DNA of 64,000 bases from NCBI GenBank assembly GCA_018062285.1, contig JAGOSO010000001.1:100137-164136 (forward strand). The letters are read 5' to 3'. Every line of letters begins with the position of its first letter. The stretch's first letter is position 1. The DNA is from Minisyncoccota bacterium (GTDB taxonomy: Bacteria; Patescibacteriota; Minisyncoccia; 2-02-FULL-40-12; GWA2-44-9). Position numbers and translations under genes: made by a program. Positions 2,800 to 58,193 of the stretch are shown here, piece after piece. Under the pieces are notes generated by a model. The model ran no database searches. It was not told the DNA's origin and worked only from the letters and a program-made list of their open reading frames with translations.

Positions 2800-3066
2800 T
2801 TAGAGGTCGATTTCTTGTTTCAACTTTCTCTTTGCTTCGTCAAAAACATCTTTGTCGTAGGTGCCGAGCTTTTCTAATTTGCGTCGGAGACCAGCGAGAT
2901 GGATGCCCATGATTGCAGCATTCTTTTCACGACGTTCAGTTTGTTTTTTGACTCGGAATCTAGTCTTCTTTGCTTTCAACAAAACACCGCTCTGCTGAAC
3001 AAAGCGATTGAATCGGCGCATCATACTGCCGATGGATTCATTTGGTTTTCGTTTTACTTCTACCAT
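2800..3066 (-). CDS. rpsU: 30S ribosomal protein bS21
   Basis: 88 aa, very basic; MVEVKRKPNESIGSMMRRFNRFVQQSGVLLKAKKTRF...KPTTERR-like S21 pattern. Confidence 0.85.
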   Translation of the reverse strand: MVEVKRKPNESIGSMMRRFNRFVQQSGVLLKAKKTRFRVKKQTERREKNAAIMGIHLAGLRRKLEKLGTYDKDVFDEAKRKLKQEIDL

Positions 3067-3142
3067 AAATATACCTCCTTCTATTTATACAGGATACCAC
3101 TAAATGGGCTTGGTATCAAGTTTTATTACTTTTAATTAAAAT

Positions 3143-7352: not shown

Positions 7353-7934
7353 TTGGTTATGGCAACAACAAAACTAATTGTAGGAATCGGCAATCCAGAT
7401 GCAGAATACCAAGGAACCAGACACAACATCGGGTTTATGTTTTTGGATTACTTGGCTAAAAAGATAGACGCTAATGACTTTGCAGAAGATAAAAAACTAA
7501 ACGCATTGGTCTCTAAATCAAAGATCGAGAAGACTCCAGTCGTTTTGGCTAAGCCCTTATCATATGTAAATAAGTCCGGAGATGTTGTGGGCAAGATGGC
7601 CAGATTCTACAAAGTAAAAGCTAAGGATGTCATTGTTGTTCAAGACGACTTAGATATTGAATTTGGTTCATTCAAGAACTCTTTTGAAAAGAATTCTGGT
7701 GGCCACAAGGGTGTTGAATCTATAATTAAGGCCCTAAAGACAAACAAATTCTTCCGTTTACGAATCGGCACTTCTGTCAGAGCCCTAGAAAAAGCCCGCG
7801 AACAATCAGACAAAAAGAGAGATGCTTTTGTTATGGATTTCGTTCTGGCCAAATTCACACCCAAGGAACAAGAAACGATTAAGAAAATGTTCCCTGAAGT
7901 CTACGCTCGCCTACTAGAACTCCTCAAGCAATAA
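7353..7934 (+). CDS. pth: Peptidyl-tRNA hydrolase
   Basis: LIVGIGNPDAEYQGTRHNIGFMFLDYLA N-terminus is diagnostic. Confidence 0.95.
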   Translation: MVMATTKLIVGIGNPDAEYQGTRHNIGFMFLDYLAKKIDANDFAEDKKLNALVSKSKIEKTPVVLAKPLSYVNKSGDVVGKMARFYKVKAKDVIVVQDDLDIEFGSFKNSFEKNSGGHKGVESIIKALKTNKFFRLRIGTSVRALEKAREQSDKKRDAFVMDFVLAKFTPKEQETIKKMFPEVYARLLELLKQ

Positions 7935-7942
7935 TTTAACCA

Positions 7943-7976
7943 AACTAAAACCCGCCACATCGGCGGGTTTTAGTTT
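7943..7976. terminator. Bidirectional intrinsic terminator between convergent genes
   Basis: AAACTAAAACCCGCC-acat-GGCGGGTTTTAGTTT. Confidence 0.7.
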
Positions 7977-7991
7977 GGTTACCAAAGAAGA

Positions 7992-8678
7992 CTAATTGTC
8001 GCCAATTCTCTTCTTTAATTGACCAATGGCTTCTTCAGCATGACGAGCGCCACCAAGACCAAAGGAAAGACCAATGGCCAAGGAGATAGCAGCAATCAAA
8101 CCAAGAATGACATATTTGATAACATCATCAGCAACTTTAAGCTGAACCAATGCGATCAATAAACCAAAGACAAATACAGCCCACTTGGTTAAGGCGCCAA
8201 GGAAGTTAGCAGAAGCCAACCCGGCTGCCCTAACAGAACCCTGAACGATGCCTTCCAAGAACTTAGCAACCAAGATACTGACCAACAAAATGATTGCTGA
8301 AATTACCACATTCGGAATGTAGTAAACAACACTTTGAAGGAAATTGGTAACTTCAGTTAAACCTAAGATGTTGGTGGCGGCCATCAAGAACACGATAACA
8401 AAGAACCATTTTACTAATTCGCAAAATAGTTTTGGAGTGTCCAAGCGGAATCCACTTTTTTCCCAAGCTCTACGGAAACCAACTTTCGTTAATGCGTTAT
8501 CAATGTGTAAGACTCGGACAATATGATAGACAAGCTTACCGAGCAATACAGCTACTAACCAACCAATCAAAAATACTACTAAGGCAGCAACGAGGCGCGG
8601 AATAAAGCCGGCCACGCTAGACCAAAGAGTAAGCAAAGAACCCTGAACGATATCTGATGCTTGTAATACTTCTAACAT
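7992..8678 (-). CDS. Multi-pass membrane protein (TM-helix repeat / MscS-N-terminal-like)
   Basis: 228 aa, five or more hydrophobic helices, repeated GLxxVxNFLxxL-like segments. Confidence 0.55.
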   Translation of the reverse strand: MLEVLQASDIVQGSLLTLWSSVAGFIPRLVAALVVFLIGWLVAVLLGKLVYHIVRVLHIDNALTKVGFRRAWEKSGFRLDTPKLFCELVKWFFVIVFLMAATNILGLTEVTNFLQSVVYYIPNVVISAIILLVSILVAKFLEGIVQGSVRAAGLASANFLGALTKWAVFVFGLLIALVQLKVADDVIKYVILGLIAAISLAIGLSFGLGGARHAEEAIGQLKKRIGDN

Positions 8679-11442: not shown

Positions 11443-11518
11443 TGGTGGACCCTGCCGGGTTCGAACCGGCGACCTCCTCATTGCAAATGAGGCGCTCTAC
11501 CAACTGAGCTAAGGGCCC
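11443..11518 (-). tRNA. tRNA-Ala(UGC)
   Basis: GGGCCCTTAGCTCAGTTGGTAGAGCGCCTCATTTGCAATGAGG...CCA; G3:U70 Ala identity pair; anticodon loop TTTGCAA; CCA encoded. Confidence 0.9.
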
Positions 11519-11531
11519 TAACTTCCTTCTG

Positions 11532-11603
11532 TGGGTGCGGAAGGAATCGAACCTTCGACCTCGTTCTTATCAGGAACGCGTTCTACCACTGAACTACGCA
11601 CCC
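11532..11603 (-). tRNA. tRNA-Ile(GAU)
   Basis: GGGTGCGTAGTTCAGTGGTAGAACGCGTTCCTGATAAGAACG...; anticodon GAT; cloverleaf closes; no encoded CCA. Confidence 0.9.
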
Positions 11604-22387: not shown

Positions 22388-23851
<1,464 letters not shown>

Positions 23852-24160
23852 CTTAAGAAATCTGAACTACTAAAAAATAGTACAGAAAATTTGCTGCTTA
23901 ACTATATGAAATTGACAATGTTCTTTCATTAATTTCGCCTTTGCGAAAGTAGCTCTGCTGACCCTCTCTAAAGAATAGCAGAACCACGACTTTCCTCGGC
24001 AATCCAAGGCCAGTCGTGGTTTAACTATGTGTCTAATTGTGTGGTAGTAAAGATTGGGTCTCTAAGGTCCAAATCACTACTAAACTTGATGGTTCCTTTA
24101 TTATACTCGCCGATAAAAAAGAGTCAAGGCCCAGCGCGCGAACGCACTGGGCCCAAAGGC

Positions 24161-36936: not shown

Positions 36937-36965
36937 TGTAACCATGCAAGCATGGCTACAATGCC

Positions 36966-38093
36966 TTAGAACCAGATGCCAACAGACAACATCGGTGACC
37001 ACACCGACATGTTGGTCGTCCGAGGCTTAAACACTCCGCGACCGACGGCGTACGGATCCGAGATCACGTAGCCCGGCGCGGTCGGCGCATTGCTCAGCGA
37101 TGACCTCGCCACGCTCAGTCCAATATTCAGGACGGAATTCGAAACGCGAACCCGCAACTTGAGACCGACCTTCATATCGATGGCGGTAGTAGTCTTCTTG
37201 ACCGTCTCCGCGTACGGCATGGCTGTCGGTGCCCAGTTCAGATGCGCGAGTGTCTGTGTCGGCGTACCATTGACACCACCGGACGACGCCGTCAGGTAGA
37301 TGTCCTTGGTCGCTTTAAACAACCCATCGGCCTTGGTTCCGCTCCCCCATGGGAATGTCGCCACGGCCAACCGACCGTCAATCGACAACCGGCTGAAGAG
37401 GCAGTACTCCCCTTCGATTCCACCGGTCAGTCCGAAATGAGTCGACTTCGCGGTGGCCATCGAGGAATAGTTGTAGTCCTCACGGATTGCCTGAGCACTG
37501 ATCGAGCGATCGCTGTTCAGCGTATAGAGCAGGAAGTTCTGCGACCGGGCCAGGTCTTCCGAGCTTTCGACTCGCAGAACCGGAACGCCGGCGAAGAACG
37601 AGAACGTTCCTTCCGACAACCCGACCGTGTAGTTCAGCAGTGCATCGAAGCGTGTAACTTTCGCGCTCGACTTCTGACTGTACCCCACGGGACCATAGAG
37701 CACCGGCGCCGAAGAAACGATCTTCGGCGTAGCGTCGGGCCCCCAGGTCTTGATCTGTCCGTCGGTCTGTGCGACCGAACTGTTCAGATCGTTGCTCGAC
37801 CCGAAGCGGTAGAATCGCACTTCCCCGCCAAAACCATTCACCGGTTTACGACCAATGAACGCCTGGACGAAGGAATTGGCCTTCGCGTCGTCCCCGACAA
37901 TCTTGTCGCCGGACGACGAATGGATGGAACCGATCGGCTGAATCAACCCATCGGTCTTCACCAAGCCAGCCGGGGCAAAATCGCCTCCGATGACCCAGTT
38001 GTTCACCTTCACCGGCGCCTGCTGCGCCTTCGCCACACCCGCCGTGAGGACCATCACGAGAACCGCCGAAACTACGAGGACCATCTTGTTCAT
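36966..38093 (-). CDS. Outer-membrane beta-barrel (porin/OMP-like) protein in a strongly GC-rich island (about 60% GC)
   Basis: Signal peptide MNKMVLVVSAVLVMVLTAGVAKA-QQAP; 375 aa rich in G/S/T/N with alternating amphipathic segments; C-terminus ...MLSVGIWF, a terminal-Phe beta-signal typical of Gram-negative OMPs; the antisense Arg-rich 318-aa ORF is rejected. Confidence 0.6.
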   Translation of the reverse strand: MNKMVLVVSAVLVMVLTAGVAKAQQAPVKVNNWVIGGDFAPAGLVKTDGLIQPIGSIHSSSGDKIVGDDAKANSFVQAFIGRKPVNGFGGEVRFYRFGSSNDLNSSVAQTDGQIKTWGPDATPKIVSSAPVLYGPVGYSQKSSAKVTRFDALLNYTVGLSEGTFSFFAGVPVLRVESSEDLARSQNFLLYTLNSDRSISAQAIREDYNYSSMATAKSTHFGLTGGIEGEYCLFSRLSIDGRLAVATFPWGSGTKADGLFKATKDIYLTASSGGVNGTPTQTLAHLNWAPTAMPYAETVKKTTTAIDMKVGLKLRVRVSNSVLNIGLSVARSSLSNAPTAPGYVISDPYAVGRGVFKPRTTNMSVWSPMLSVGIWF

Positions 38094-38180
38094 AACGTCT
38101 CCTTGGCCATCATGGCCACAAAACCTTCAAAAAATGCCCTGTTTGTTATAGAACTACCAGATATTAAATATATCACTTTT

Positions 38181-38890: not shown

Positions 38891-38977
38891 GGAAGCGTGG
38901 CTGAGTGGTTGAAAGCACCTGATTCGAAATCAGGCATAGGGGCAACCTTATCGGAGGTTCGAATCCTCCCGCTTCCG
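38891..38977 (+). tRNA. tRNA-Ser(CGA)
   Basis: Type II tRNA with long variable arm; anticodon loop TTCGAAA; discriminator G. Confidence 0.9.
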
Positions 38978-39021
38978 CAGCGTCTTGGAAAAAGCCAAGA
39001 CTTATGGCAAAATAGTGTCTT

Positions 39022-39109
39022 GGAGAGGTGGCCGAGTGGTTTAAGGCAACGGTCTTGAAAACCGTCGTACAGCAATGTACCGTGAGTTCGAATCTCACCC
39101 TCTCCGCCA
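39022..39109 (+). tRNA. tRNA-Ser(UGA)
   Basis: Type II tRNA; anticodon loop CTTGAAA; CCA encoded. Confidence 0.9.
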
Positions 39110-50637: not shown

Positions 50638-50742
50638 TTAAGAACCAACTCTTTCGCCCCAGACCCACGAAACCAGTCCTGTCGGTTTCCCCACTGCTGT
50701 GGGACCCCTTCCGCTGCTGGGGCTTAAAGAGTTAGTTCTTAA
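50638..50742 (-). other. About 105-nt GC-rich nested-helix element (candidate structured RNA or MITE-like repeat) between tsaE and polA
   Basis: 17-bp terminal inverted repeats TTAAGAACCAACTCTTT / AAAGAGTTAGTTCTTAA enclose GCCCCAG...CTGGGGC, CCCAC...GTGGG and GAAACC...GGTTTC helices; ends 13 nt before the polA ATG. Confidence 0.4.
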
Positions 50743-50751
50743 TTCATTTTG

Positions 50752-51216
50752 TTAATCGATAACTTTAGCGACTGAAATGTTTCGCTGTTGTTCCGATACA
50801 TGTTCTATCTTAATTACCCAATGGTTTCGGGGAAGAATATCCCCCACTCTCTCGGCCCACTCCATCAAAACAATCACGCCAGGTTGGTTAATAATTTCTT
50901 TTGTTCCGAGCGGAATCAAATCAGCGGAACTATTTAAACGATAGCAATCAAAATGATAGAGCGTTTGATAATTAGGAATATCTTTTAAAGAATAGTGTTT
51001 CATCAAAACAAATGTTGGGCTCTTTAGATTTTCTTTGACACCAAGAGCTTTGGCAAAGGCTTGAGTGAAAGTTGTCTTGCCAGCACCAAGCTCACCTTCT
51101 AGGGCAATCACAAGTGGTTGACCGTTAGCTTCCTTTATAAGCAAAAGTGCCTGCTCGCGAGCAAAGCGCTGAGTATCTTCCGGGCTGTAAGAGACGTGGT
51201 TCATTGGTGTCATCAT
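50752..51216 (-). CDS. tsaE: tRNA threonylcarbamoyladenosine biosynthesis protein TsaE
   Basis: ALEGELGAGKTTFTQAFAKALGV P-loop; start taken at MMTPMNH (the tracked N-terminal extension runs into the neighbouring GC-rich DNA). Confidence 0.8.
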   Translation of the reverse strand: MMTPMNHVSYSPEDTQRFAREQALLLIKEANGQPLVIALEGELGAGKTTFTQAFAKALGVKENLKSPTFVLMKHYSLKDIPNYQTLYHFDCYRLNSSADLIPLGTKEIINQPGVIVLMEWAERVGDILPRNHWVIKIEHVSEQQRNISVAKVID

Positions 51217-51261
51217 ATCTTTTTTATCTTCATGTTTCAATCTATTTTTTGTATTTAAATA

Positions 51262-51306
51262 CCCCGCATTTCTGCGGGGCGTGGACCGTGGCCGAAGCCA
51301 CGGTCC
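51262..51306 (-). terminator. Tandem GC hairpins downstream of the Pro-rich gene
   Basis: CCCCGCA-tttc-TGCGGGG and GGACCGTGGC-cgaa-GCCACGGTCC. Confidence 0.5.
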
Positions 51307-51314
51307 CAAGGGTG

Positions 51315-51944
51315 TCAGCGACAGACCTGGGACGCTTCGTCCCAAAACTCTGCCGATGAAAACCCCTGCGCGTTGTACCACTCCTTGCATCCATCCCTCC
51401 CGAGACCATCGGGGGCCGGACGAACGTCGCGGAACTGGGGCTGGTTCGAAGTGACTCGAACCGTTTCCTCAGTCTGCGCCGCCGAGCGCTGGGCCGGAGC
51501 CGTGGTCGCCACAGGGGCGGCCAAGGTCATCGTCGGCTGGATACCTCTTCCAAAGAAGAGCCAGCCGAGCACCACCAGCGTCAGGGCCACGATGGCCACG
51601 ATGGCGGCCGCTCCAAGACCATTCCCACTAACGCTGTTGGCGTTGGCGGTATGGACATGGATCCGAGGCGACTGAAACGCCGCGGAGGCGCGGTAACCCG
51701 GGGCGGGTGGCGGGCAAACCGGAGGGGCAGGCGGTGCCGGACGAACCGGAGCAACCGCGGGACGCGGTGCCCGTGCCACGCGACGCACCGGAGGTGCGGG
51801 TGGCGGTGCGCCAGCGGGGGCCGGAGCAGCAGGCGGGGCGGGTGGACGGGGCGGCACACCACCTGCAGCAGCGGGTGCTACGACAGGCGGAGCAGGACGG
51901 GGCGGAAGTCCTCCGCCAAGAACGGGTGCGGGTCTACGGGCCAT
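51315..51944 (-). CDS. Pro/Ala-rich membrane protein in a very GC-rich island (about 65-70% GC)
   Basis: MARRPAPVLGGGLPPRPAPPVVAPAAAGG... about 90-aa PA-rich low-complexity N-terminus, one TM, C-terminal Cys-containing domain; multiple antisense ORFs rejected. Confidence 0.5.
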   Translation of the reverse strand: MARRPAPVLGGGLPPRPAPPVVAPAAAGGVPPRPPAPPAAPAPAGAPPPAPPVRRVARAPRPAVAPVRPAPPAPPVCPPPAPGYRASAAFQSPRIHVHTANANSVSGNGLGAAAIVAIVALTLVVLGWLFFGRGIQPTMTLAAPVATTAPAQRSAAQTEETVRVTSNQPQFRDVRPAPDGLGRDGCKEWYNAQGFSSAEFWDEASQVCR

Positions 51945-51958
51945 GATCTGTGTCTCCT

Positions 51959-52426
51959 CTACTTGACGCTGGCGACTTGCCAGCCATAGTTGCGGACGTA
52001 TTCGAGTCGGACAGATCGGTCATCGATCAGCCCCTCAGTCCGTGCTGCGTTGGTCGTCGGCACATAGTGCGTACCAGTGACCTTCCATTGTTCGACTAAA
52101 CTCCAGTGAGACCACGTTGCCGGCCCCAACTGCTTGCCCCCGGGTCTCACGACCCCGAAGCAGACATCAACACCGGAAATGCGATCGGTAATGATAAACA
52201 TCACCGGCACATTTGCCAAGGTGTTATCGTACCACTCCACCTCGTGGTTACCGCGCAGGCGCGGATCCCAGCAAGATGGAACGACTGGCATCGGGGCAGG
52301 CCGAAGATTCGGCGCGTCCCGATAAACCTGACGGTTCGGCGCGACTTGCGGGGAAACCTTCCCCGCACAGGCGATGACCGACATGGTCACCAGAGCTAAA
52401 ACCACGAGCCGGACGAAAAACCTCAT
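51959..52426 (-). CDS. Putative lipoprotein in a GC-rich island (about 60% GC)
   Basis: Signal peptide with lipobox-like VIAC-AG; 155 aa. Confidence 0.5.
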   Translation of the reverse strand: MRFFVRLVVLALVTMSVIACAGKVSPQVAPNRQVYRDAPNLRPAPMPVVPSCWDPRLRGNHEVEWYDNTLANVPVMFIITDRISGVDVCFGVVRPGGKQLGPATWSHWSLVEQWKVTGTHYVPTTNAARTEGLIDDRSVRLEYVRNYGWQVASVK

Positions 52427-52626
52427 GTGAACCTCCTAAATGCTCGCGCAAGCTGCGCCGAGCGAGACCGAAAATGATATTCAATTGTGAAGTTACTTAC
52501 CCTTCACTGTATACATACATTATAGCACTTTATAGGTATTTTGTAAAGGGCCAAAAAACCAACAAAAATAAGCCTTTTTAAGGCCTAAAAATAGACAAAG
52601 TTTCATTCGAAACATTCTTTGGTTCC

Positions 52627-52998
52627 CTACTCTATGTTCTTGTAGTGCCGAATCTTGGCTACTCCCCTTTCCTTAACAAAGGACACTGAGACAACATCCA
52701 TCTGCCAAGGCTGATCATCGGGATAATGCATGTCTGAAAGATAAGTTCGAGCTATGCGGATCATGCGATGCTTCTTGTAAGAATCGACTCGGAGTTCCGG
52801 CTCAAAGCCAGGGACATCTTTTTTACTAGCCTTCACTTCAACAAAAATTACTATCCCCTGCTTCTCGGCAATAACATCTATCTCGCCCCAAGGCTTACGA
52901 TAGTTATGGCCTAAAATTTTATAATTTTTAGATTTTAAATACTCAGCTGCGTAATGTTCAGCAAAGAATCCCAGCTCGCTTGTCTTGTTACCAGCCAT
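52627..52998 (-). CDS. YraN-family (UPF0102) endonuclease
   Basis: ...GEIDVIAEKQGIVIFVEVKASKK PD-(D/E)xK core. Confidence 0.75.
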   Translation of the reverse strand: MAGNKTSELGFFAEHYAAEYLKSKNYKILGHNYRKPWGEIDVIAEKQGIVIFVEVKASKKDVPGFEPELRVDSYKKHRMIRIARTYLSDMHYPDDQPWQMDVVSVSFVKERGVAKIRHYKNIE

Positions 52999-53273
52999 AC
53001 TTAAAACTTATCATTTTTTTAACCCAAGACCAATAATTTTTGCCGTCCCAAGATGTGGATGAGCGGGTTTGATATTGGCCCTGATTTATGGTATCCTCTG
53101 TATACGTTCTCGCAAGAGAATTTTTGCGTTTATAGGCCAGCAATATCCCCTAACCAATTAGGACAATCCTCCAAAACCTAACTCACCAAACCAAGTCCGC
53201 ACTCCGGTCTTTTTCTGCATACATAGACGGGCTTACTCACTCCGGTCATTATCAAATTGGGGCAACCATCGCT

Positions 53274-54326
53274 TTGGCTTTAGCTGTACTCGTATTCAAG
53301 GTTCCCGATGCTAACCAGACTGGAATCATAAACAATCTCGTCCGCCACTACACAGAAGAAACCTCGGCTTCCATAGTCACATCAACCCTCCCAGTCAAAC
53401 CAATTGATATAAATTCCTTGATGGCGGGTGTTCCTGTGGCCAGAGAAGGTCAAGGAGGGACCCTAGATGGGCCCGTGGACACAAGCATCCAAGCTTCTTA
53501 CACAATACAGGAAAGTACAATACAAGCCGTAAACTCTGTTTCAACTGACTACCTAAATGATATAAAACCCAACAAAGTTACAGATTACACGGTTCAGCCT
53601 GGGGACGCCTTATCTTTCATAGCTTCCGACTTCGGGGTCAGCACGGATTCAATTATCTGGGCCAATAAACTGTCCAACATAGACAATCTCACTCCTGGCC
53701 AAATCATTAGAATCCCTCCAGTGACTGGGGTTATCCACGTGGTCCAAAAAGGTGATACCATATCTTCCATTGCCAAGAAATACAACGGAGAAGCAGCAAA
53801 AATCATATCTTTCAATGATTTAACAGGTGAATCAACCCTCGACCTCGGAGATGAGTTAATAATACCTAATGGAACTCCAGCATTGCCCAACACTAAGGTT
53901 GTAGCCAGCGTAAACAAGAATTTCTTGTCTAGTGTGACCAGTGCAGCTAAGCGTTTTGCTTATTTAGCAGATATGAGCGACTATTTTAGGCTTCCAGCAA
54001 CTGGGTTTGATTGGGGGATTGTCCATGGTCGTAATGGCGTCGATGTTGCTAATGCCTGTGGTACACCTATCCTCGCAGCAGCTGATGGAAACATTGCAAC
54101 AGCCTTAAGCTCTGGTTACAATGGCGGTTTTGGTAAATACATTAAGATTGTCCATCCAAATGGGACGGAAACCCTATACGCCCATTTGAGCAAGTTGCTT
54201 GTTAAGGAGGGTGCCTCTGTCTCCAAGGGTCAACAAATAGCTCTAATGGGAACGACTGGCCACTCAACTGGTTGCCACCTTCACTTTGAAGTCCACGGCG
54301 CCCGCAATCCTTTAGCTAAATACTAG
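53274..54326 (+). CDS. LysM-domain M23 metallopeptidase (cell-wall hydrolase)
   Basis: Two LysM repeats (YTVQPGDALSFIASDFGV...; HVVQKGDTISSIAKKY...) and C-terminal M23 GTTGHSTGCHLHFEV; TTG start uncertain, the frame is open back to 53193. Confidence 0.8.
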   Translation: MALAVLVFKVPDANQTGIINNLVRHYTEETSASIVTSTLPVKPIDINSLMAGVPVAREGQGGTLDGPVDTSIQASYTIQESTIQAVNSVSTDYLNDIKPNKVTDYTVQPGDALSFIASDFGVSTDSIIWANKLSNIDNLTPGQIIRIPPVTGVIHVVQKGDTISSIAKKYNGEAAKIISFNDLTGESTLDLGDELIIPNGTPALPNTKVVASVNKNFLSSVTSAAKRFAYLADMSDYFRLPATGFDWGIVHGRNGVDVANACGTPILAAADGNIATALSSGYNGGFGKYIKIVHPNGTETLYAHLSKLLVKEGASVSKGQQIALMGTTGHSTGCHLHFEVHGARNPLAKY

Positions 54327-54327
54327 A

Positions 54328-54390
54328 CTTGTTCCTCCCGAAACATAAAAGTCGCCTCATCGGCGACTTTTATGTTTCGGGAGGAACAGG
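54328..54390. terminator. Very long (about 29-bp stem) bidirectional terminator hairpin
   Basis: CTTGTTCCTCCCGAAACATAAAAGTCGCC-tcatc-GGCGACTTTTATGTTTCGGGAGGAACAGG between convergent genes. Confidence 0.75.
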
Positions 54391-54402
54391 GGAACAAGCC
54401 AG

Positions 54403-55938
54403 CTATACCTCACCCGTCAATTTATCATTTATCTTCAGGCTTATTGCCTCAGCAATATGGCCAGAGTTAATCAATTCTGAAGATTCTAGGTCCGCAATAG
54501 TGCGGGCCAGCTTCTTTATTTTATGGAAAGACCTAAAGGATAGAGACTTTGCATCAACCGCATTTTGCAATAATCTTTCAGCATCAGCAGCAAGAATGCA
54601 CCATTTATCTATGTTTCGATAAGAAATCTCAGCATTAGTATATATCTTTGAGTTTTTGAATCTTTCGGACTGAATTAAACGAGCATTGGCCACCTTTTCT
54701 TTTATTTCCTTAAATTTTTTAAGCGACATCGGCTCGGTAAGTATAGAAGCTGTTTCTCTCGGAACATTAATTTGTATATCAATCCTATCAAGAAGGGGAC
54801 CAGAAATTTTGTTTCGATAACGAATAACACTGATAGGAGAACAAACACAATTAGCCTTTAATTCACCATAATTACCGCAAGGACAAGGATTCATGGCTGC
54901 AACTAAGGAAAATTTGGCGGGCAATCTAACAGACCCAGCAGCCCGTGAAACAGTGACAATACCTTCCTCTAGCGGCTCTCGTAAACTTTCTAGAACATGG
55001 CGGGGGAACTCGGGCAATTCATCGAGAAACAATATCCCTCGATGAGAAAGACTTATTTCTCCTGGTTTTGGATTAGTTCCACCACCAACCATGGCTGGAG
55101 CCGATGTTGTATGATGCGGACTACGAAATGGGCGAGCGGAAATAAGCCCAGAACCACCAGCTAAACCTAGGGAACTATAAATTCTGGTTACTTCTATGGC
55201 TTCTGGGAATGACAAATTGGGCATTAAATCAACCAAGGCTTTAGCCAATAAAGTTTTGCCAGAACCTGGGGGACCGCTCATTAAAATGTTATGCCCACCA
55301 GCGGCGGCCACCTGAAGGGCCCGTTTGGCTGATTCTTGGCCCTTAATCAAGCGAAAAGCCTCACCGTCCTCTTCTTTTTCAGCTAAATCTTCGGCCTTAT
55401 GTGCAGTGGCTTTGATTGATCTAATACCACCAAGGTGCGCCATTAAATCAGTGATCGTTGCGACCCCAATAACTTTTATGCCTTCCACCACCGAAGCTTC
55501 GGCCGCATTGGCAATTGGTACATAAATTTCATCATAACCCAACTTGTTGGCCAAAATCGAAGCGGATAAAACTCCATTTATTGGTTTCACTGCGCCATTA
55601 AGAGAAAGTTCGCCCAAGAAAAGCTTATTATCTGTCTCGAATTTAACTTGGCCGGTTTCCAACAAATAACCTACCGCAATGGGTAGGTCATAAGCTGGTC
55701 CTTCCTTGCGAATATCGGCTGGGGCCAAATTTATTATAATTTTCTTGTGTTTAGCGCTGGGTGGGATAAGGGAATTAGTCCTTATTGCAGAAGCAATTCT
55801 TTCCTTAGACTCCTGCACTGCCTTATCGGCCAGACCAACGATACTAAAAGCGTGCAGACCAGGGGTTGAATCAACCTCAACCTCTATGAGTTGAGCATCG
55901 ATTCCACTAATTGAAGCTGAGAATATGCGAACAGACAC
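54403..55938 (-). CDS. comM: YifB/ComM-family Mg-chelatase-like AAA+ ATPase
   Basis: 511 aa; N-terminal Lon-like domain, Walker A GPPGSGKT, C-terminal Mg-chelatase domain. Confidence 0.9.
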   Translation of the reverse strand: MSVRIFSASISGIDAQLIEVEVDSTPGLHAFSIVGLADKAVQESKERIASAIRTNSLIPPSAKHKKIIINLAPADIRKEGPAYDLPIAVGYLLETGQVKFETDNKLFLGELSLNGAVKPINGVLSASILANKLGYDEIYVPIANAAEASVVEGIKVIGVATITDLMAHLGGIRSIKATAHKAEDLAEKEEDGEAFRLIKGQESAKRALQVAAAGGHNILMSGPPGSGKTLLAKALVDLMPNLSFPEAIEVTRIYSSLGLAGGSGLISARPFRSPHHTTSAPAMVGGGTNPKPGEISLSHRGILFLDELPEFPRHVLESLREPLEEGIVTVSRAAGSVRLPAKFSLVAAMNPCPCGNYGELKANCVCSPISVIRYRNKISGPLLDRIDIQINVPRETASILTEPMSLKKFKEIKEKVANARLIQSERFKNSKIYTNAEISYRNIDKWCILAADAERLLQNAVDAKSLSFRSFHKIKKLARTIADLESSELINSGHIAEAISLKINDKLTGEV

Positions 55939-55959
55939 AAGTTGTATTTAGTCTACAAA

Positions 55960-56316
55960 CTATTCCGCACACTTAATGCAAAAACGGGCTGTAGGCACCT
56001 CAAGGAGTCTTTCAAGGGGGATATCTATGCCGCACTTCTCACAAACGCCATAGCGGCCATTTTGGAGCTTCTCATGGGCTTCTACAATATCTTCTAAACG
56101 ATGTTTTAGTTCCTGTTCGACGGCAGTGTTGTTTTCGGTCATGGTTGCTTCACGAACAATATCATCTTCACGAACATCTCCGTCATATTGTGCCGGCTTT
56201 GGCTGGAAGCCACCAGAAGCAGGATCAATAACAGCAACATCACTAAGCTCTTTTCGGACAAGGGCTTCTTCTTTAACCAGCAATTCTTCTAGTGTTTTTA
56301 GATTTTCTTGGTTCAT
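55960..56316 (-). CDS. DksA/TraR-family C4 zinc-finger protein
   Basis: YGVCEKCGIDIPLERLLEVPTARFCIKC = CxxC-x17-CxxC. Confidence 0.8.
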   Translation of the reverse strand: MNQENLKTLEELLVKEEALVRKELSDVAVIDPASGGFQPKPAQYDGDVREDDIVREATMTENNTAVEQELKHRLEDIVEAHEKLQNGRYGVCEKCGIDIPLERLLEVPTARFCIKCAE

Positions 56317-56546
56317 ATAAATTTATGGTATCTAAATAAGTAAATAATGTAAAATTTTTGTAAAAAAAGAAGGCGTCGATAGTCGCTTTCAAAATAGAAT
56401 TGCGAGTGTGACACGACGCCTTCGAACCGATTGGGCCAGTGGTCCCTGACGGTTAGGTGACTACCAGCTGCTGTAAAGGAACTATGCTGCGCTACCTGTT
56501 ACTGCTGTTACTACAACTGCTCTTACCTAATAAGTATATATCCGAT

Positions 56547-56688
56547 GGTGACATGCGTCAATTGTAAAAAGTTGATAACTGTCACCATGTCACCAAAGTA
56601 AACATATTGGCTTTAATCCTTATTATTTTTGGTGACATGGTGGTGACATTTACGTGTCGCTATCCACACAAAATGTCACTTAGTGACA
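56547..56688. promoter_or_regulatory. Array of seven GTGACA(T)/ATGTCAC motifs (candidate operator/iteron cluster)
   Basis: GGTGACAT at 56547, 56631, 56642; TGTCACC and ATGTCACC at 56580-56594; palindrome ATGTCAC-tta-GTGACA at 56673-56688; AT-rich spacers; upstream of the second DksA/TraR gene. Confidence 0.4.
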
Positions 56689-56698
56689 GGTTATAAAC

Positions 56699-56727
56699 AA
56701 GACCACTCGCGATAGACGAGTGGTCTT
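56699..56727 (-). terminator. Intrinsic terminator
   Basis: AAGACCACTCG-cgataga-CGAGTGGTCTT. Confidence 0.6.
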
Positions 56728-56747
56728 GTTTACTGCTTTGAGATGTT

Positions 56748-58193
56748 TTACTTACCCCTGATAGTGAAGGCATCGATGGCTGCAAACATGGCTTCACGAG
56801 AACCAGCGATTATTAAATAAGTCTTTCCGTTGTGTTGAACTAGCGAGTAATCAATAGAGCGATCTGGGTAAGGGAAGTTCTTGAAACGGATCGACGCCCC
56901 ATTATAGTTTGTTGGGGCAAAAGCACCAGTATTCTTGCCCGGCAAGACATTCATAATACTAGAAAGGTTAACACTCATCGATGGTTCCCATGTTTGCATA
57001 ATGGAGGCAGATGAGCTGGCAACTTCGCTAACAATAACGAATCTGGTGCCAGGTTTGGCATTAACAATTGGTTTCCCCTTACTATCAAAAGATTCTTTCT
57101 GACCATAGAGCAAGAACTTATAATTATTACCCAAGGATGACTGCAATGAGGCTGGGTATGCTGCCAAGAAACGATTCATTAAGCCGGAAAATGTTAGCGG
57201 TAGTGATGACGAAGATGTTCCATTGGAAATACCAACTGTAGTAAATGTTCCTGCTGAAATGCTGGTTTGAGCAGAAATAGCATTAGCGAAAGCAACGCCT
57301 GGATCGCCAGAATCAGGGAGAACGATAACCCCACCCTTATTTGGAAATACGGTTGATAACACATCGAGATTGGGAGTGATAGTTGGGCGAGGAGTGAAGG
57401 TTACAGCAGGAGAACTAGTGGCCACAGGAGTTGAATTTGTGCCCTTGATCATGAAGAACCAGTAGAGGACACCTAACAAAACCATACCTACACCGATAGC
57501 AACAAACACGAGGTTTCTGCTGCCAGAAGAAACAACGTTTTTGGTAGTGGTCGTGGCTACAGGGGGGACATAGAACTGATTCTTACTATCAATTTTTGAT
57601 GTATTGTTCTTGGTTGGTTCGGGCATTGATGGCATAACAGGACGAGGAATTGGGGTTGGTGCAGGAGAAGAAGTAGGGGGAACCACTGGCTTAGGGGCAG
57701 AAGGCAACGAGCCACTTCTGGTGGCTTCGGGCATTGTTGCTGTGGCTAGCGGCTTTGGTGCTGAAGAAGCAGGCGCAACTGGGGCAACAGGCTTAGCTGG
57801 GGCAGGGGAATTATCTATTTTCCTTGGCACATTAACACCTTGAGGCATCTGGCCCGATTTCAGCTTAGCCAAATCATCGCTCATTGTTCTAATTGAGGAT
57901 TGATACTCTTTCGGAGCTAAAGGTTGAGTCGGGGCAGGGGATGGAGTGGAAGCAGTATTTGGTTTTGGAGCAGAAGAAGCTGACACAGGGCCAGAAGATG
58001 GCATAACAGGACGAGGAATTGGGGTTGGCGCAGGAGAAGAAGTAGGGGGAACCACTGGCTGGGCCATTGGTTTAGGAGTGGGTGCTGGGTTTACTGAAGG
58101 AGTTGCTGGAGTTCCTTGTGGACGACTTAATTCTCTGACTAAATCATCGATGTTTGATTGAGATGCAGTTGAGTTTGGGCTATTATCTGCCAT
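56748..58193 (-). CDS. Pro-rich repeat membrane protein (481 aa)
   Basis: About 200-aa Pro/Ala/Ser-rich N-terminal region containing two copies of PVVPPTSSPAPTPIPRPVMPS, one TM, about 250-aa C-terminal (likely extracytoplasmic) domain. Confidence 0.65.
   Translation of the reverse strand: MADNSPNSTASQSNIDDLVRELSRPQGTPATPSVNPAPTPKPMAQPVVPPTSSPAPTPIPRPVMPSSGPVSASSAPKPNTASTPSPAPTQPLAPKEYQSSIRTMSDDLAKLKSGQMPQGVNVPRKIDNSPAPAKPVAPVAPASSAPKPLATATMPEATRSGSLPSAPKPVVPPTSSPAPTPIPRPVMPSMPEPTKNNTSKIDSKNQFYVPPVATTTTKNVVSSGSRNLVFVAIGVGMVLLGVLYWFFMIKGTNSTPVATSSPAVTFTPRPTITPNLDVLSTVFPNKGGVIVLPDSGDPGVAFANAISAQTSISAGTFTTVGISNGTSSSSLPLTFSGLMNRFLAAYPASLQSSLGNNYKFLLYGQKESFDSKGKPIVNAKPGTRFVIVSEVASSSASIMQTWEPSMSVNLSSIMNVLPGKNTGAFAPTNYNGASIRFKNFPYPDRSIDYSLVQHNGKTYLIIAGSREAMFAAIDAFTIRGK
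57628..57690. repeat. Intragenic direct repeat copy 1 (63 bp)
   Basis: Near-identical to 57997-58059 (one mismatch); encodes the PVVPPTSSPAPTPIPRPVMPS repeat. Confidence 0.8.
57997..58059. repeat. Intragenic direct repeat copy 2 (63 bp)
   Basis: See copy 1. Confidence 0.8.

Follow-up and report, generated by a model that had tools for sequence, protein, structure and literature searches.

No cue for gene transfer is used more widely than an atypical guanine-plus-cytosine (GC) content, and horizontally acquired genomic islands combine a sharp discontinuity in GC and codon usage with surface-protein cargo. Structured messages are known for native envelope genes as well: the Escherichia coli lpp and ompA mRNAs, which encode abundant envelope proteins, are long-lived and structured, and that of ompA carries 5′ stem-loops. 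Here we describe a GC-rich two-gene cassette from a Minisyncoccota bacterium (GenBank assembly GCA_018062285.1, contig JAGOSO010000001.1), analyzed within a 64,000-nucleotide (nt) stretch of that contig, hereafter the window. The cassette shares with acquired islands the composition break and the type of cargo. Unlike them, it occupies the same site in all ten lineages in which its context could be read, lacks donor homologues, mobility genes and attachment sites, and keeps its composition through the saturation of synonymous sites. Judged by its sequence, it resembles the lpp and ompA messages in its predicted strong promoter, 5′-proximal hairpin, strong ribosome-binding site, structured body, stable 3′ hairpins and envelope product; it differs in a base-composition shift that runs through entire genes, which to our knowledge has been described for neither lpp nor ompA. 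We conclude that the cassette is a vertically inherited two-gene operon specific to a Pacebacteria-like clade of the Patescibacteria (candidate phyla radiation).

When GC was profiled in 100-nt windows, the cassette stood out as an island of about 1.2 kb (~51262-52465), in which each 100-nt window has 58 to 81% GC against a mean of 43.3% for the window as a whole. Both island edges are sharp, each about 100 nt wide, and the only comparable GC-rich stretch elsewhere in the 64 kb is that at 36950-38100. The cassette consists of two genes on the minus strand, lying between yraN/UPF0102 (52627-52998; Pfam E 3e-21) and tsaE (50752-51225; Pfam E 2e-34). One encodes a lipoprotein of 155 residues (51959..52426, minus), with a GC content of ~58-59% and a GC content at third codon positions (GC3) of ~0.68-0.69, and the other a single-pass (bitopic) membrane protein of 209 residues, hereafter the partner (51315..51944, minus; GC ~69-70%, GC3 0.64). 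The first-pass annotation, made from the letters of the window, had reported two co-directional GC-rich genes between tsaE and yraN, and they are present as described. It listed the Pro/Ala-rich gene first, whereas the lipoprotein gene is the one transcribed first; the stacked GC hairpins that it placed behind the lipoprotein gene do exist, but they follow the Pro/Ala-rich gene.

The distribution of the cassette was determined by an exhaustive HMMER search of 1.84 billion cluster representative proteins with the lipoprotein family profile. Sixteen matches were obtained, and 14 of these clusters form one family of lipoproteins of 148 to 178 residues, some of them truncated. The two remaining matches, a repeat protein and a weak match to a large DUF11-type surface protein, are probably spurious. 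An indexed protein search yielded, besides the window lipoprotein itself, two lipoprotein clusters, at 50% and 59% identity. Each family member with a readable contig lies directly after yraN, in Pacebacteria/Patescibacteria contigs, and the next gene in each readable locus encodes a single-pass membrane protein whose C-terminal domain contains two Cys; tsaE-polA come next wherever the contig reaches far enough, in every lineage but L004. The loci read were L004 and L011; L005 to L010; L012 and L013; L014; L015 to L017; L018 and L019; and L022. With the window included, they represent ten distinct lineages, which share the order M23 peptidase-yraN-[lipoprotein-partner]-tsaE-polA. L022, a metagenome-assembled genome (MAG) labeled 'Patescibacteria group bacterium', was retrieved from the GTDB species genomes through the two-Cys motif of the partner; it is syntenic, and it was the only further locus found by that scan, while a scan of the same genomes with the lipoprotein returned no relative. 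In L004, a third GC-rich open reading frame (ORF; 7780-8409, plus; 209 residues, ~58% GC) follows the cassette at the position taken by tsaE in the other lineages, and neither a signal peptide nor a family was found for it.

Searches for traces of mobility gave negative results throughout. There was no match to the cassette in viral contigs or in phage and plasmid collections, and no empty yraN-tsaE site that would speak for patchy presence, the cassette being present in all ten lineages with readable context. Between yraN and tsaE there is neither an integrase nor another mobility gene; no tRNA lies nearby, no direct repeats mark the borders, and the only inverted repeat at the flanks, located in AT-rich spacers, is a weak one with 15 of 19 positions matching. 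A word-indexed search with the C-terminal half of the partner returned only the partner itself; gene callers had chosen an antisense ORF in the other assemblies. A literature search found no description of such GC-rich islands in Patescibacteria. All credible homologues belong to one syntenic Pacebacteria-like/Patescibacteria family with no high-GC donor among them. Their range is limited to relatives of this genome whose cassettes are similarly GC-rich, the outcome that the first-pass annotation had itself named as refuting its proposal, and the transfer from a high-GC, Actinobacteria-like donor that it had put forward is unsupported.

Chimerism, the other possibility raised by that annotation, is excluded by three independent assemblies with the same junctions. 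A lipoprotein sequence identical to that of the window is present in contigs of three separate sequencing runs, and its source annotation gives a Candidatus Pacebacteria MAG. Over 6975 nt (window 50683-57657), the identity between L001 and the window is 100%, and L002 and L003 have the same junctions to yraN and tsaE as the window. Nine point differences separate L002 from the window, none of them within either cassette coding sequence. L002 and L003 have in common a 42-nt in-frame insertion (14 residues) in the Pro/Ala-rich tail of the partner, at 51823/51824; in L002 it occupies positions 3039-3080, adds APAAAAAPAPRPAA and is bordered by short CGGC microhomology. Four of the nine point differences between the two sampled strains, those of the window and L002, sit inside a palindrome of ~59 nt at 54330-54388, located between convergent M23/LysM peptidase and comM-like genes, which is probably a two-way terminator.

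The GC excess was found in each lineage, the cassette genes having 55 to 76% GC and the flanking yraN and tsaE 33 to 52%. Across lineages, GC3 is 0.64-0.85 in the lipoprotein gene, 0.48-0.69 in the partner gene and 0.31-0.59 in yraN and tsaE. Six lineages with complete genes were compared pairwise, and amino-acid identities amounted to 73-95% for yraN, 26-62% for the lipoprotein and 25-62% for the partner; the yraN and lipoprotein identities are correlated (r = 0.74), as expected of co-divergence. Synonymous turnover in the flanks was then estimated at four-fold degenerate sites of polA, comM, yraN and tsaE, compared under identical amino acids. The proportion of differing sites was p = 0.53-0.73 in all lineage pairs except L006/L012 (p = 0.21), corresponding to Jukes-Cantor distances of ~0.9 to 2.9, at or near saturation. 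The GC content at four-fold sites (GC4) of the housekeeping genes ranges from ~0.22 to 0.69 among lineages, with L015 and L013 to be set against the window and L014, so that genome composition itself is mobile within the clade. Cassette GC4 is mostly 0.6-0.8 (full range, 0.42-0.83, with the minimum in the L004 partner gene). Under a simple two-state decay model, such turnover should wipe out most of an inherited GC excess. These data indicated that high GC, synonymous sites included, is an old property of the locus that was kept in every lineage despite synonymous turnover in the flanks.

To what extent the excess follows from the encoded proteins was estimated by recoding the same amino acids with the codon usage of 21 long window genes. 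The observed GC exceeded this expectation both for the lipoprotein gene (0.59 vs 0.49) and for the partner gene (0.70 vs 0.60), and so did GC3 (0.68 vs 0.42 and 0.64 vs 0.38), indicating that about half of the GC excess stems from amino-acid content and half is synonymous. In the cassette, GCG, CCG, ACG and TCG account for 23-48% of the codons of their families versus 8-12% in the reference genes, and CTG, ATC, AAG and CAG are commoner in the cassette as well. The shift is therefore a general move to G- and C-ending codons led by NCG codons, and this is not the pattern of translational selection for preferred codons, which was rejected as an explanation. Amino-acid composition as the sole source of the GC was likewise rejected: it explains about half of the excess, and the window's own Pro-rich membrane protein of 481 residues (56748-58193, minus) uses host codons. 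The GC3 of its gene is a host-like 0.37, so proline richness alone is not the cause of the cassette GC. This 481-residue protein is itself single-pass, with an internal repeat of ~21 residues and no Pfam family match; its relatives, 307 to 481 residues in total length, have a conserved C-terminal domain and a variable Pro-rich N-terminal part.

The promoter, leader, lipoprotein gene, partner gene and two stacked hairpins are predicted to constitute a single transcription unit, all on the minus strand. A pattern scan placed a terminator-like hairpin of yraN at 52569..52587, and an equivalent hairpin is visible in the orthologous alignment. The putative cassette promoter follows at 52519..52547 in AT-rich surroundings, with TTTACA, a 17-nt spacer and TG-n-TATAAT (here TGcTATAAT), that is, 11 of 12 matches together with an extended -10 element. 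The 5′ leader (52427..52512, ~85-90 nt) contains two hairpins and a Shine-Dalgarno sequence. Hairpin 1 (52487-52507) lies near the leader 5′ end; hairpin 2 (52442-52463), a GC hairpin, lies ahead of the lipoprotein gene where the GC content climbs, and the Shine-Dalgarno sequence of that gene, AGGAGG, is at 52432-52437. The partner gene starts 14 nt past the lipoprotein stop, with its own GAGGAG inside those 14 nt. Behind it stand hairpin A (51283..51306), a perfect 10-bp stem (GGACCGUGGC / GCCACGGUCC) with a UUCG loop, and the terminator-like hairpin B (51262..51279), CCCCGCA GAAA UGCGGGG, which has a 7-bp stem and a GAAA loop and is followed by UAUUUAAAU. The tsaE promoter region comes next in the direction of transcription.

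These elements were compared among relatives by aligning the spacers between yraN and the lipoprotein gene from nine lineages. The two promoter hexamers and the TG are preserved in every one of them, and the leader is conserved as well. A strong GC hairpin corresponding to hairpin 2 is present in 9/9 leaders, 10 to 45 nt ahead of the ribosome-binding site, and hairpin 1 (6-8 bp, close to the 5′ end) in about seven of them; covariation in the leader is modest, with double changes in two of nine consensus pairs. The 3′ end was readable in seven orthologues, the window counted among them, and hairpin A is followed there by a longer terminator hairpin. Eleven pairs hold in the consensus helix of hairpin A, eight of which show compensatory double changes in at least one of the seven aligned lineages each. 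A run of four to six U residues follows the terminator hairpin in five of the six non-window orthologues, and L004 has UUUUGU; in the window, a simple terminator scan gave no call at hairpin B and the sequence behind it. Hairpin A is not a dispersed element of the repetitive extragenic palindromic type, its stem occurring once in the window. At the Rfam gathering score, only 16S rRNA and tRNAs were matched in the window, and none of the leader or 3′ hairpins was.

Folding of the transcript was assessed with 150-nt pieces, each compared with dinucleotide shuffles. The z-scores along the unit in the window were -1.3, -3.5, -4.0, -0.9, -0.6, -0.7, -4.1, -0.5 and -6.7, the last belonging to the piece that holds hairpins A and B, whereas pieces of yraN, tsaE and polA ranged from +1.2 to -2.1. 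In five lineages, the mean z-score was -1.59 for 39 cassette pieces versus -0.14 for 58 flank pieces (Mann-Whitney p = 1e-7, the pieces being partly non-independent across lineages). This excess of transcript structure is supportive, not conclusive, for selection on the transcript.

The lipoprotein agrees with bacterial membrane lipoproteins of the Lgt/LspA pathway (PROSITE PS51257) in its positive N-terminus, hydrophobic core, lipobox Cys at 18-23 and Pro-rich tether. Membership was examined with a PS51257-type pattern, [LIVMFWSTAG](2)-[LIVMFYSTAGCQ]-[AGS]-C, which calls for Lys/Arg near the N-terminus, then a hydrophobic stretch free of charges, and a Cys no later than about residue 35; all 15 full-length members matched it, having the Cys at 18-23 and one to three K/R in the first eight residues. 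The lipoprotein-type signal VIAC noted in the first-pass annotation is the lipobox ...SVIAC ending at Cys20; behind the signal peptide comes a Pro-rich tether (residues 21-50), and behind that an all-beta domain. Every full-length member has two or four further cysteines, and Cys52, Cys89 and a GP motif show little or no variation across the family. An AlphaFold 2 model from the 15 sequences reached a predicted local distance difference test (pLDDT) value of 85; in it, a signal helix and a disordered, Pro-rich tether precede an all-beta domain of seven strands. A run with three sequences only (pLDDT 53) was too poor and was not used. Unlike described lipoproteins, this one is confined to one clade and one slot, and its domain is without match. 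No sequence-profile match was found in PDB, Pfam or NCBIfam, none of the 15 members matched Pfam, and the best TM-score in a Foldseek search against PDB and BFVD was 0.35. Neither Lgt nor LspA was found within the 64-kb window, where ten ORFs of suitable size all proved to be other proteins.

The partner has the overall layout that the first-pass annotation had described for the Pro/Ala-rich protein, since composition and hydropathy confirmed a Pro/Ala-rich N-terminus, one transmembrane segment and a Cys-containing C-terminal domain. Its Pro/Ala/Arg-rich tail (residues 1-110; 51615..51944, minus), delimited by composition and charge, contains 34 Pro, 26 Ala and 11 Arg but no acidic residue. 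The transmembrane segment (residues ~111-134; 51543..51614, minus), which aligns in orthologues, includes a single hydrophobic segment at 113-131 with a Kyte-Doolittle value of 2.73. The C-terminal ~75 residues end in a conserved small outer domain (51321..51389, minus), GCKEWYNxQGFSSxEFWDExSQxC, with Cys186 and Cys208 forming the conserved two-Cys motif. By the positive-inside rule, we infer that the tail is cytoplasmic, and the conserved cysteine pair suggests that the C-terminal domain is outside. The tail is the least conserved part: its length ranges from ~9 to ~110 residues among orthologues and varies by 14 residues between strains, the tails of L013 and L022 are Thr/Gly/Arg-rich, and L015 has a tail of only ~9 residues and a Pro/Glu-rich stretch after the helix instead. 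The spacing from lipoprotein stop to partner start is -1 to 58 nt across lineages, and the 14 nt found here, together with the one-base overlap in L014 and L015, fits co-translation in fixed proportion. In a search against PDB profiles, the membrane helix gave weak matches to archaeal pilin N-termini (E 0.05-0.12), which were taken as hydrophobic-segment matches.

The combination of a single membrane helix with an extended, disordered Pro-rich segment and a small domain at one end recalls the layouts of TonB, FtsN, ZipA and RodZ, and the Pro/Glu-rich stretch after the helix of the L015 partner is TonB-like. The partner differs from TonB and FtsN in that neither TonB_C, SPOR nor another known domain was matched in Pfam by the window protein or three orthologues. 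It further departs from TonB-type layouts in that its Pro-rich stretch, in most lineages, lies before the helix, is Arg-rich and is probably cytoplasmic, and what is conserved is a ~23-residue loop flanked by two Cys. The actinobacterial secreted and membrane families considered, the LpqH 19-kDa antigen and DUF11 repeats, were rejected for the lipoprotein, with no Pfam match in the 15 members. A diversity-generating retroelement target was rejected as well: BLAST of the L001 locus against the window revealed no second copy of any cassette segment, and the internal repeats are short and of low complexity. Both proteins appear to be new, clade-restricted surface components, the lipoprotein representing a new all-beta family.

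The second GC-rich stretch of the window contains one gene (36966-38093, minus) of 59% GC and GC3 0.74-0.75. The encoded protein, 375 residues long, carries a signal peptide, ends in Phe and matches the Legionella major outer-membrane protein family below the threshold (E 2e-4); in a candidate-phyla bacterium, a barrel of the outer-membrane type would be a surprise. Relatives of this protein are few, at 46-60% identity. The contigs of two of them were read (L020, 6001-7134, and L021, 5858-6973), and both hold syntenic orthologues of ~58-63% GC in surroundings of ~42-49% GC. The build is alike, in that a promoter-like, AT-rich site, one hairpin ahead of the ribosome-binding site and a pair of stacked hairpins at the 3′ end are present, and the coding sequence folds with a mean z-score of -1.2 versus -0.36 in the flanks (p = 0.008). 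NCG codons account for 33-78% of their families. These data indicated that the phenomenon is not unique to the yraN-tsaE slot. TCG represents 49% of the Ser codons in the 375-residue gene versus 12% in the reference genes, and tandem genes for tRNA-Ser(CGA) and tRNA-Ser(TGA) (38891-39109, plus) are found ~0.8 kb from it.

Taken together, we consider it probable, though well short of certain, that the cassette is an envelope operon passed down vertically and that its GC is being maintained, as opposed to surviving as a relic. In the mechanism that we propose, a near-consensus promoter in AT-rich DNA would drive the two-hairpin leader of ~90 nt, then the lipoprotein, then the partner, and the conserved 11-bp hairpin and the terminator hairpin would close the transcription unit. 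The two proteins would be made together and would form, on the outside of the cell membrane, a disulfide-stabilized pair, one lipid-anchored and the other helix-anchored, acting as a fast-evolving envelope component with a possible structural, adhesive or host-contact role. In the least certain step, GC would be held by selection on the transcript, a structured mRNA with hairpins at both ends, and such a layout would give either a long-lived message or control through codons rare in this genome. Selection on the transcript fits best because the GC domain coincides with the leader hairpin and the terminator, because conserved hairpins are present at both ends along with excess structure in five lineages, and because the same build recurs at the second locus; we hold it tentatively, with the balance still leaning against it. 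More speculative is the wider idea that the clade carries a class of GC-rich 'expression islands' for exported envelope proteins, inherited vertically and kept by selection, with highly structured transcripts, native AT-rich promoters and conserved 5′ and 3′ hairpins, whose composition would itself be functional in mRNA lifetime or rare-codon control and no trace of a foreign origin; we regard this extension as doubtful.

Several observations weigh against the view that GC is maintained. When substitutions were polarized by outgroup parsimony in two trios (L006/L022 with L012, and L012/L013 with L006), GC-to-AT changes outnumbered AT-to-GC changes, 185 vs 119 in total and 84 vs 47 at third positions, and this ratio of 1.6-1.8 may leave room for a slow net loss of GC. 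The third-position ratio of ~1.8 lies between 1, the equilibrium value, and ~3.5, the value that we calculated for a sequence of GC3 = 0.7 decaying freely under the host bias; moreover, parsimony with distant outgroups inflates changes away from the common state. The polarized counts thus argue against free neutral decay, but they do not prove equilibrium. The cassette-proximal halves of the flanking genes have a GC3 of 0.49-0.50 versus 0.38-0.39, in 11 of 12 comparisons, which would also fit a recombination-linked process; finer bins gave similar GC3 values deep inside polA, so the flank effect is within gene-internal noise. The lower z-scores of the cassette may in part be a general property of GC-rich coding sequence. 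As for the proteins, searches of Pfam, NCBIfam, PHROGs and PADLOC with both of them and their orthologues gave nothing significant, and what points to complex formation is gene linkage and the cysteines only.

The excess of GC-to-AT changes is also what would be expected if the operon had entered the clade ancestor from a high-GC donor and were still drifting to host composition. Such an ancient transfer would account for a codon usage of the general high-GC type (GCG, CCG, ACG, TCG and CTG) that is not a translationally preferred subset, and one weak match (E 4e-4) leads to the repeats of a 1369-residue DUF11-containing surface protein of high-GC type, with which the lipoprotein has a YDNSxSxxPVxF-like motif in common. 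This protein (P0019) reached an hhalign probability of only 11%, however, and no convincing donor homologue was found among the 1.84 billion representatives. A neutral relic should have lost most of its excess while the flanking synonymous sites became saturated, the third-position ratio is well below that calculated for neutral decay even though parsimony inflates it, the cassette GC4 stayed mostly at 0.6-0.8 while that of the background moved between 0.22 and 0.69, and the conserved promoter is of a native AT-rich type. We therefore consider an ancient import unlikely. GC-biased gene conversion appears less likely still. A surface locus under diversifying selection would recombine often, and repair would raise its local GC, in agreement with a cassette that evolves much faster than its neighbors, with the enrichment of G- and C-ending codons alike and with the higher GC3 of the near flank halves. 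The GC edges, however, are sharp and match the leader hairpin and the terminator, with no decay across the flanks beyond gene-internal noise, and the GC3 shift of +0.25 to +0.45 is far above the size usually attributed to gene conversion in bacteria. Furthermore, no point change separates the two sampled strains within the cassette coding sequences, and the correlated divergence of yraN and the lipoprotein gives no sign of allele exchange.

Two further explanations seem to us scarcely tenable. A recent import from an actinobacterium-like source, or a chimeric assembly, is suggested only by composition and the Pro/Ala-rich style of the proteins; the identical junctions in independent assemblies, the orthologues at the same position in ten lineages with no homologues elsewhere, and borders free of integrase, tRNA and direct repeats all speak against it. 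That the ORFs are spurious and the island is a structured noncoding RNA or DNA element has in its favor the fact that GC-rich DNA gives long ORFs on both strands, as illustrated by the antisense ORFs taken in several assemblies, and also the excess of predicted structure in the region. Against it stand amino-acid motifs that are conserved despite a saturated nucleotide sequence, a lipobox in all 15 full-length members, a confident all-beta model, Shine-Dalgarno sequences before both starts and the lack of an Rfam match.

Apart from the two islands, the window contains a full 16S rRNA gene (22389-23858, minus). A tRNA-Ile/tRNA-Ala pair, which usually follows the 16S rRNA gene, is located ~10.8 kb off behind protein-coding ORFs (11443-11603, minus), and neither 23S nor 5S rRNA was found in the 64 kb.

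At this locus, atypical GC misleads when it is read as a cue for transfer. The island dates back as far as the clade itself, and it seems to be kept away from the composition of the genome, which for its part drifts from lineage to lineage. Were selection on the transcript responsible, these small-genome bacteria would have an unrecognized way to tune the output of envelope proteins, and if the expression-island idea is also true, detection of transfer by composition would systematically misassign loci of this kind in these genomes. Should slow decay of an ancient import be the cause, the case would be an ordinary one; the broader significance would rise if a genome-wide class of such loci exists. 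Organisms of this kind are thought to live attached to other cells, and the two clade-restricted surface proteins are candidates for the interface of cell contact.

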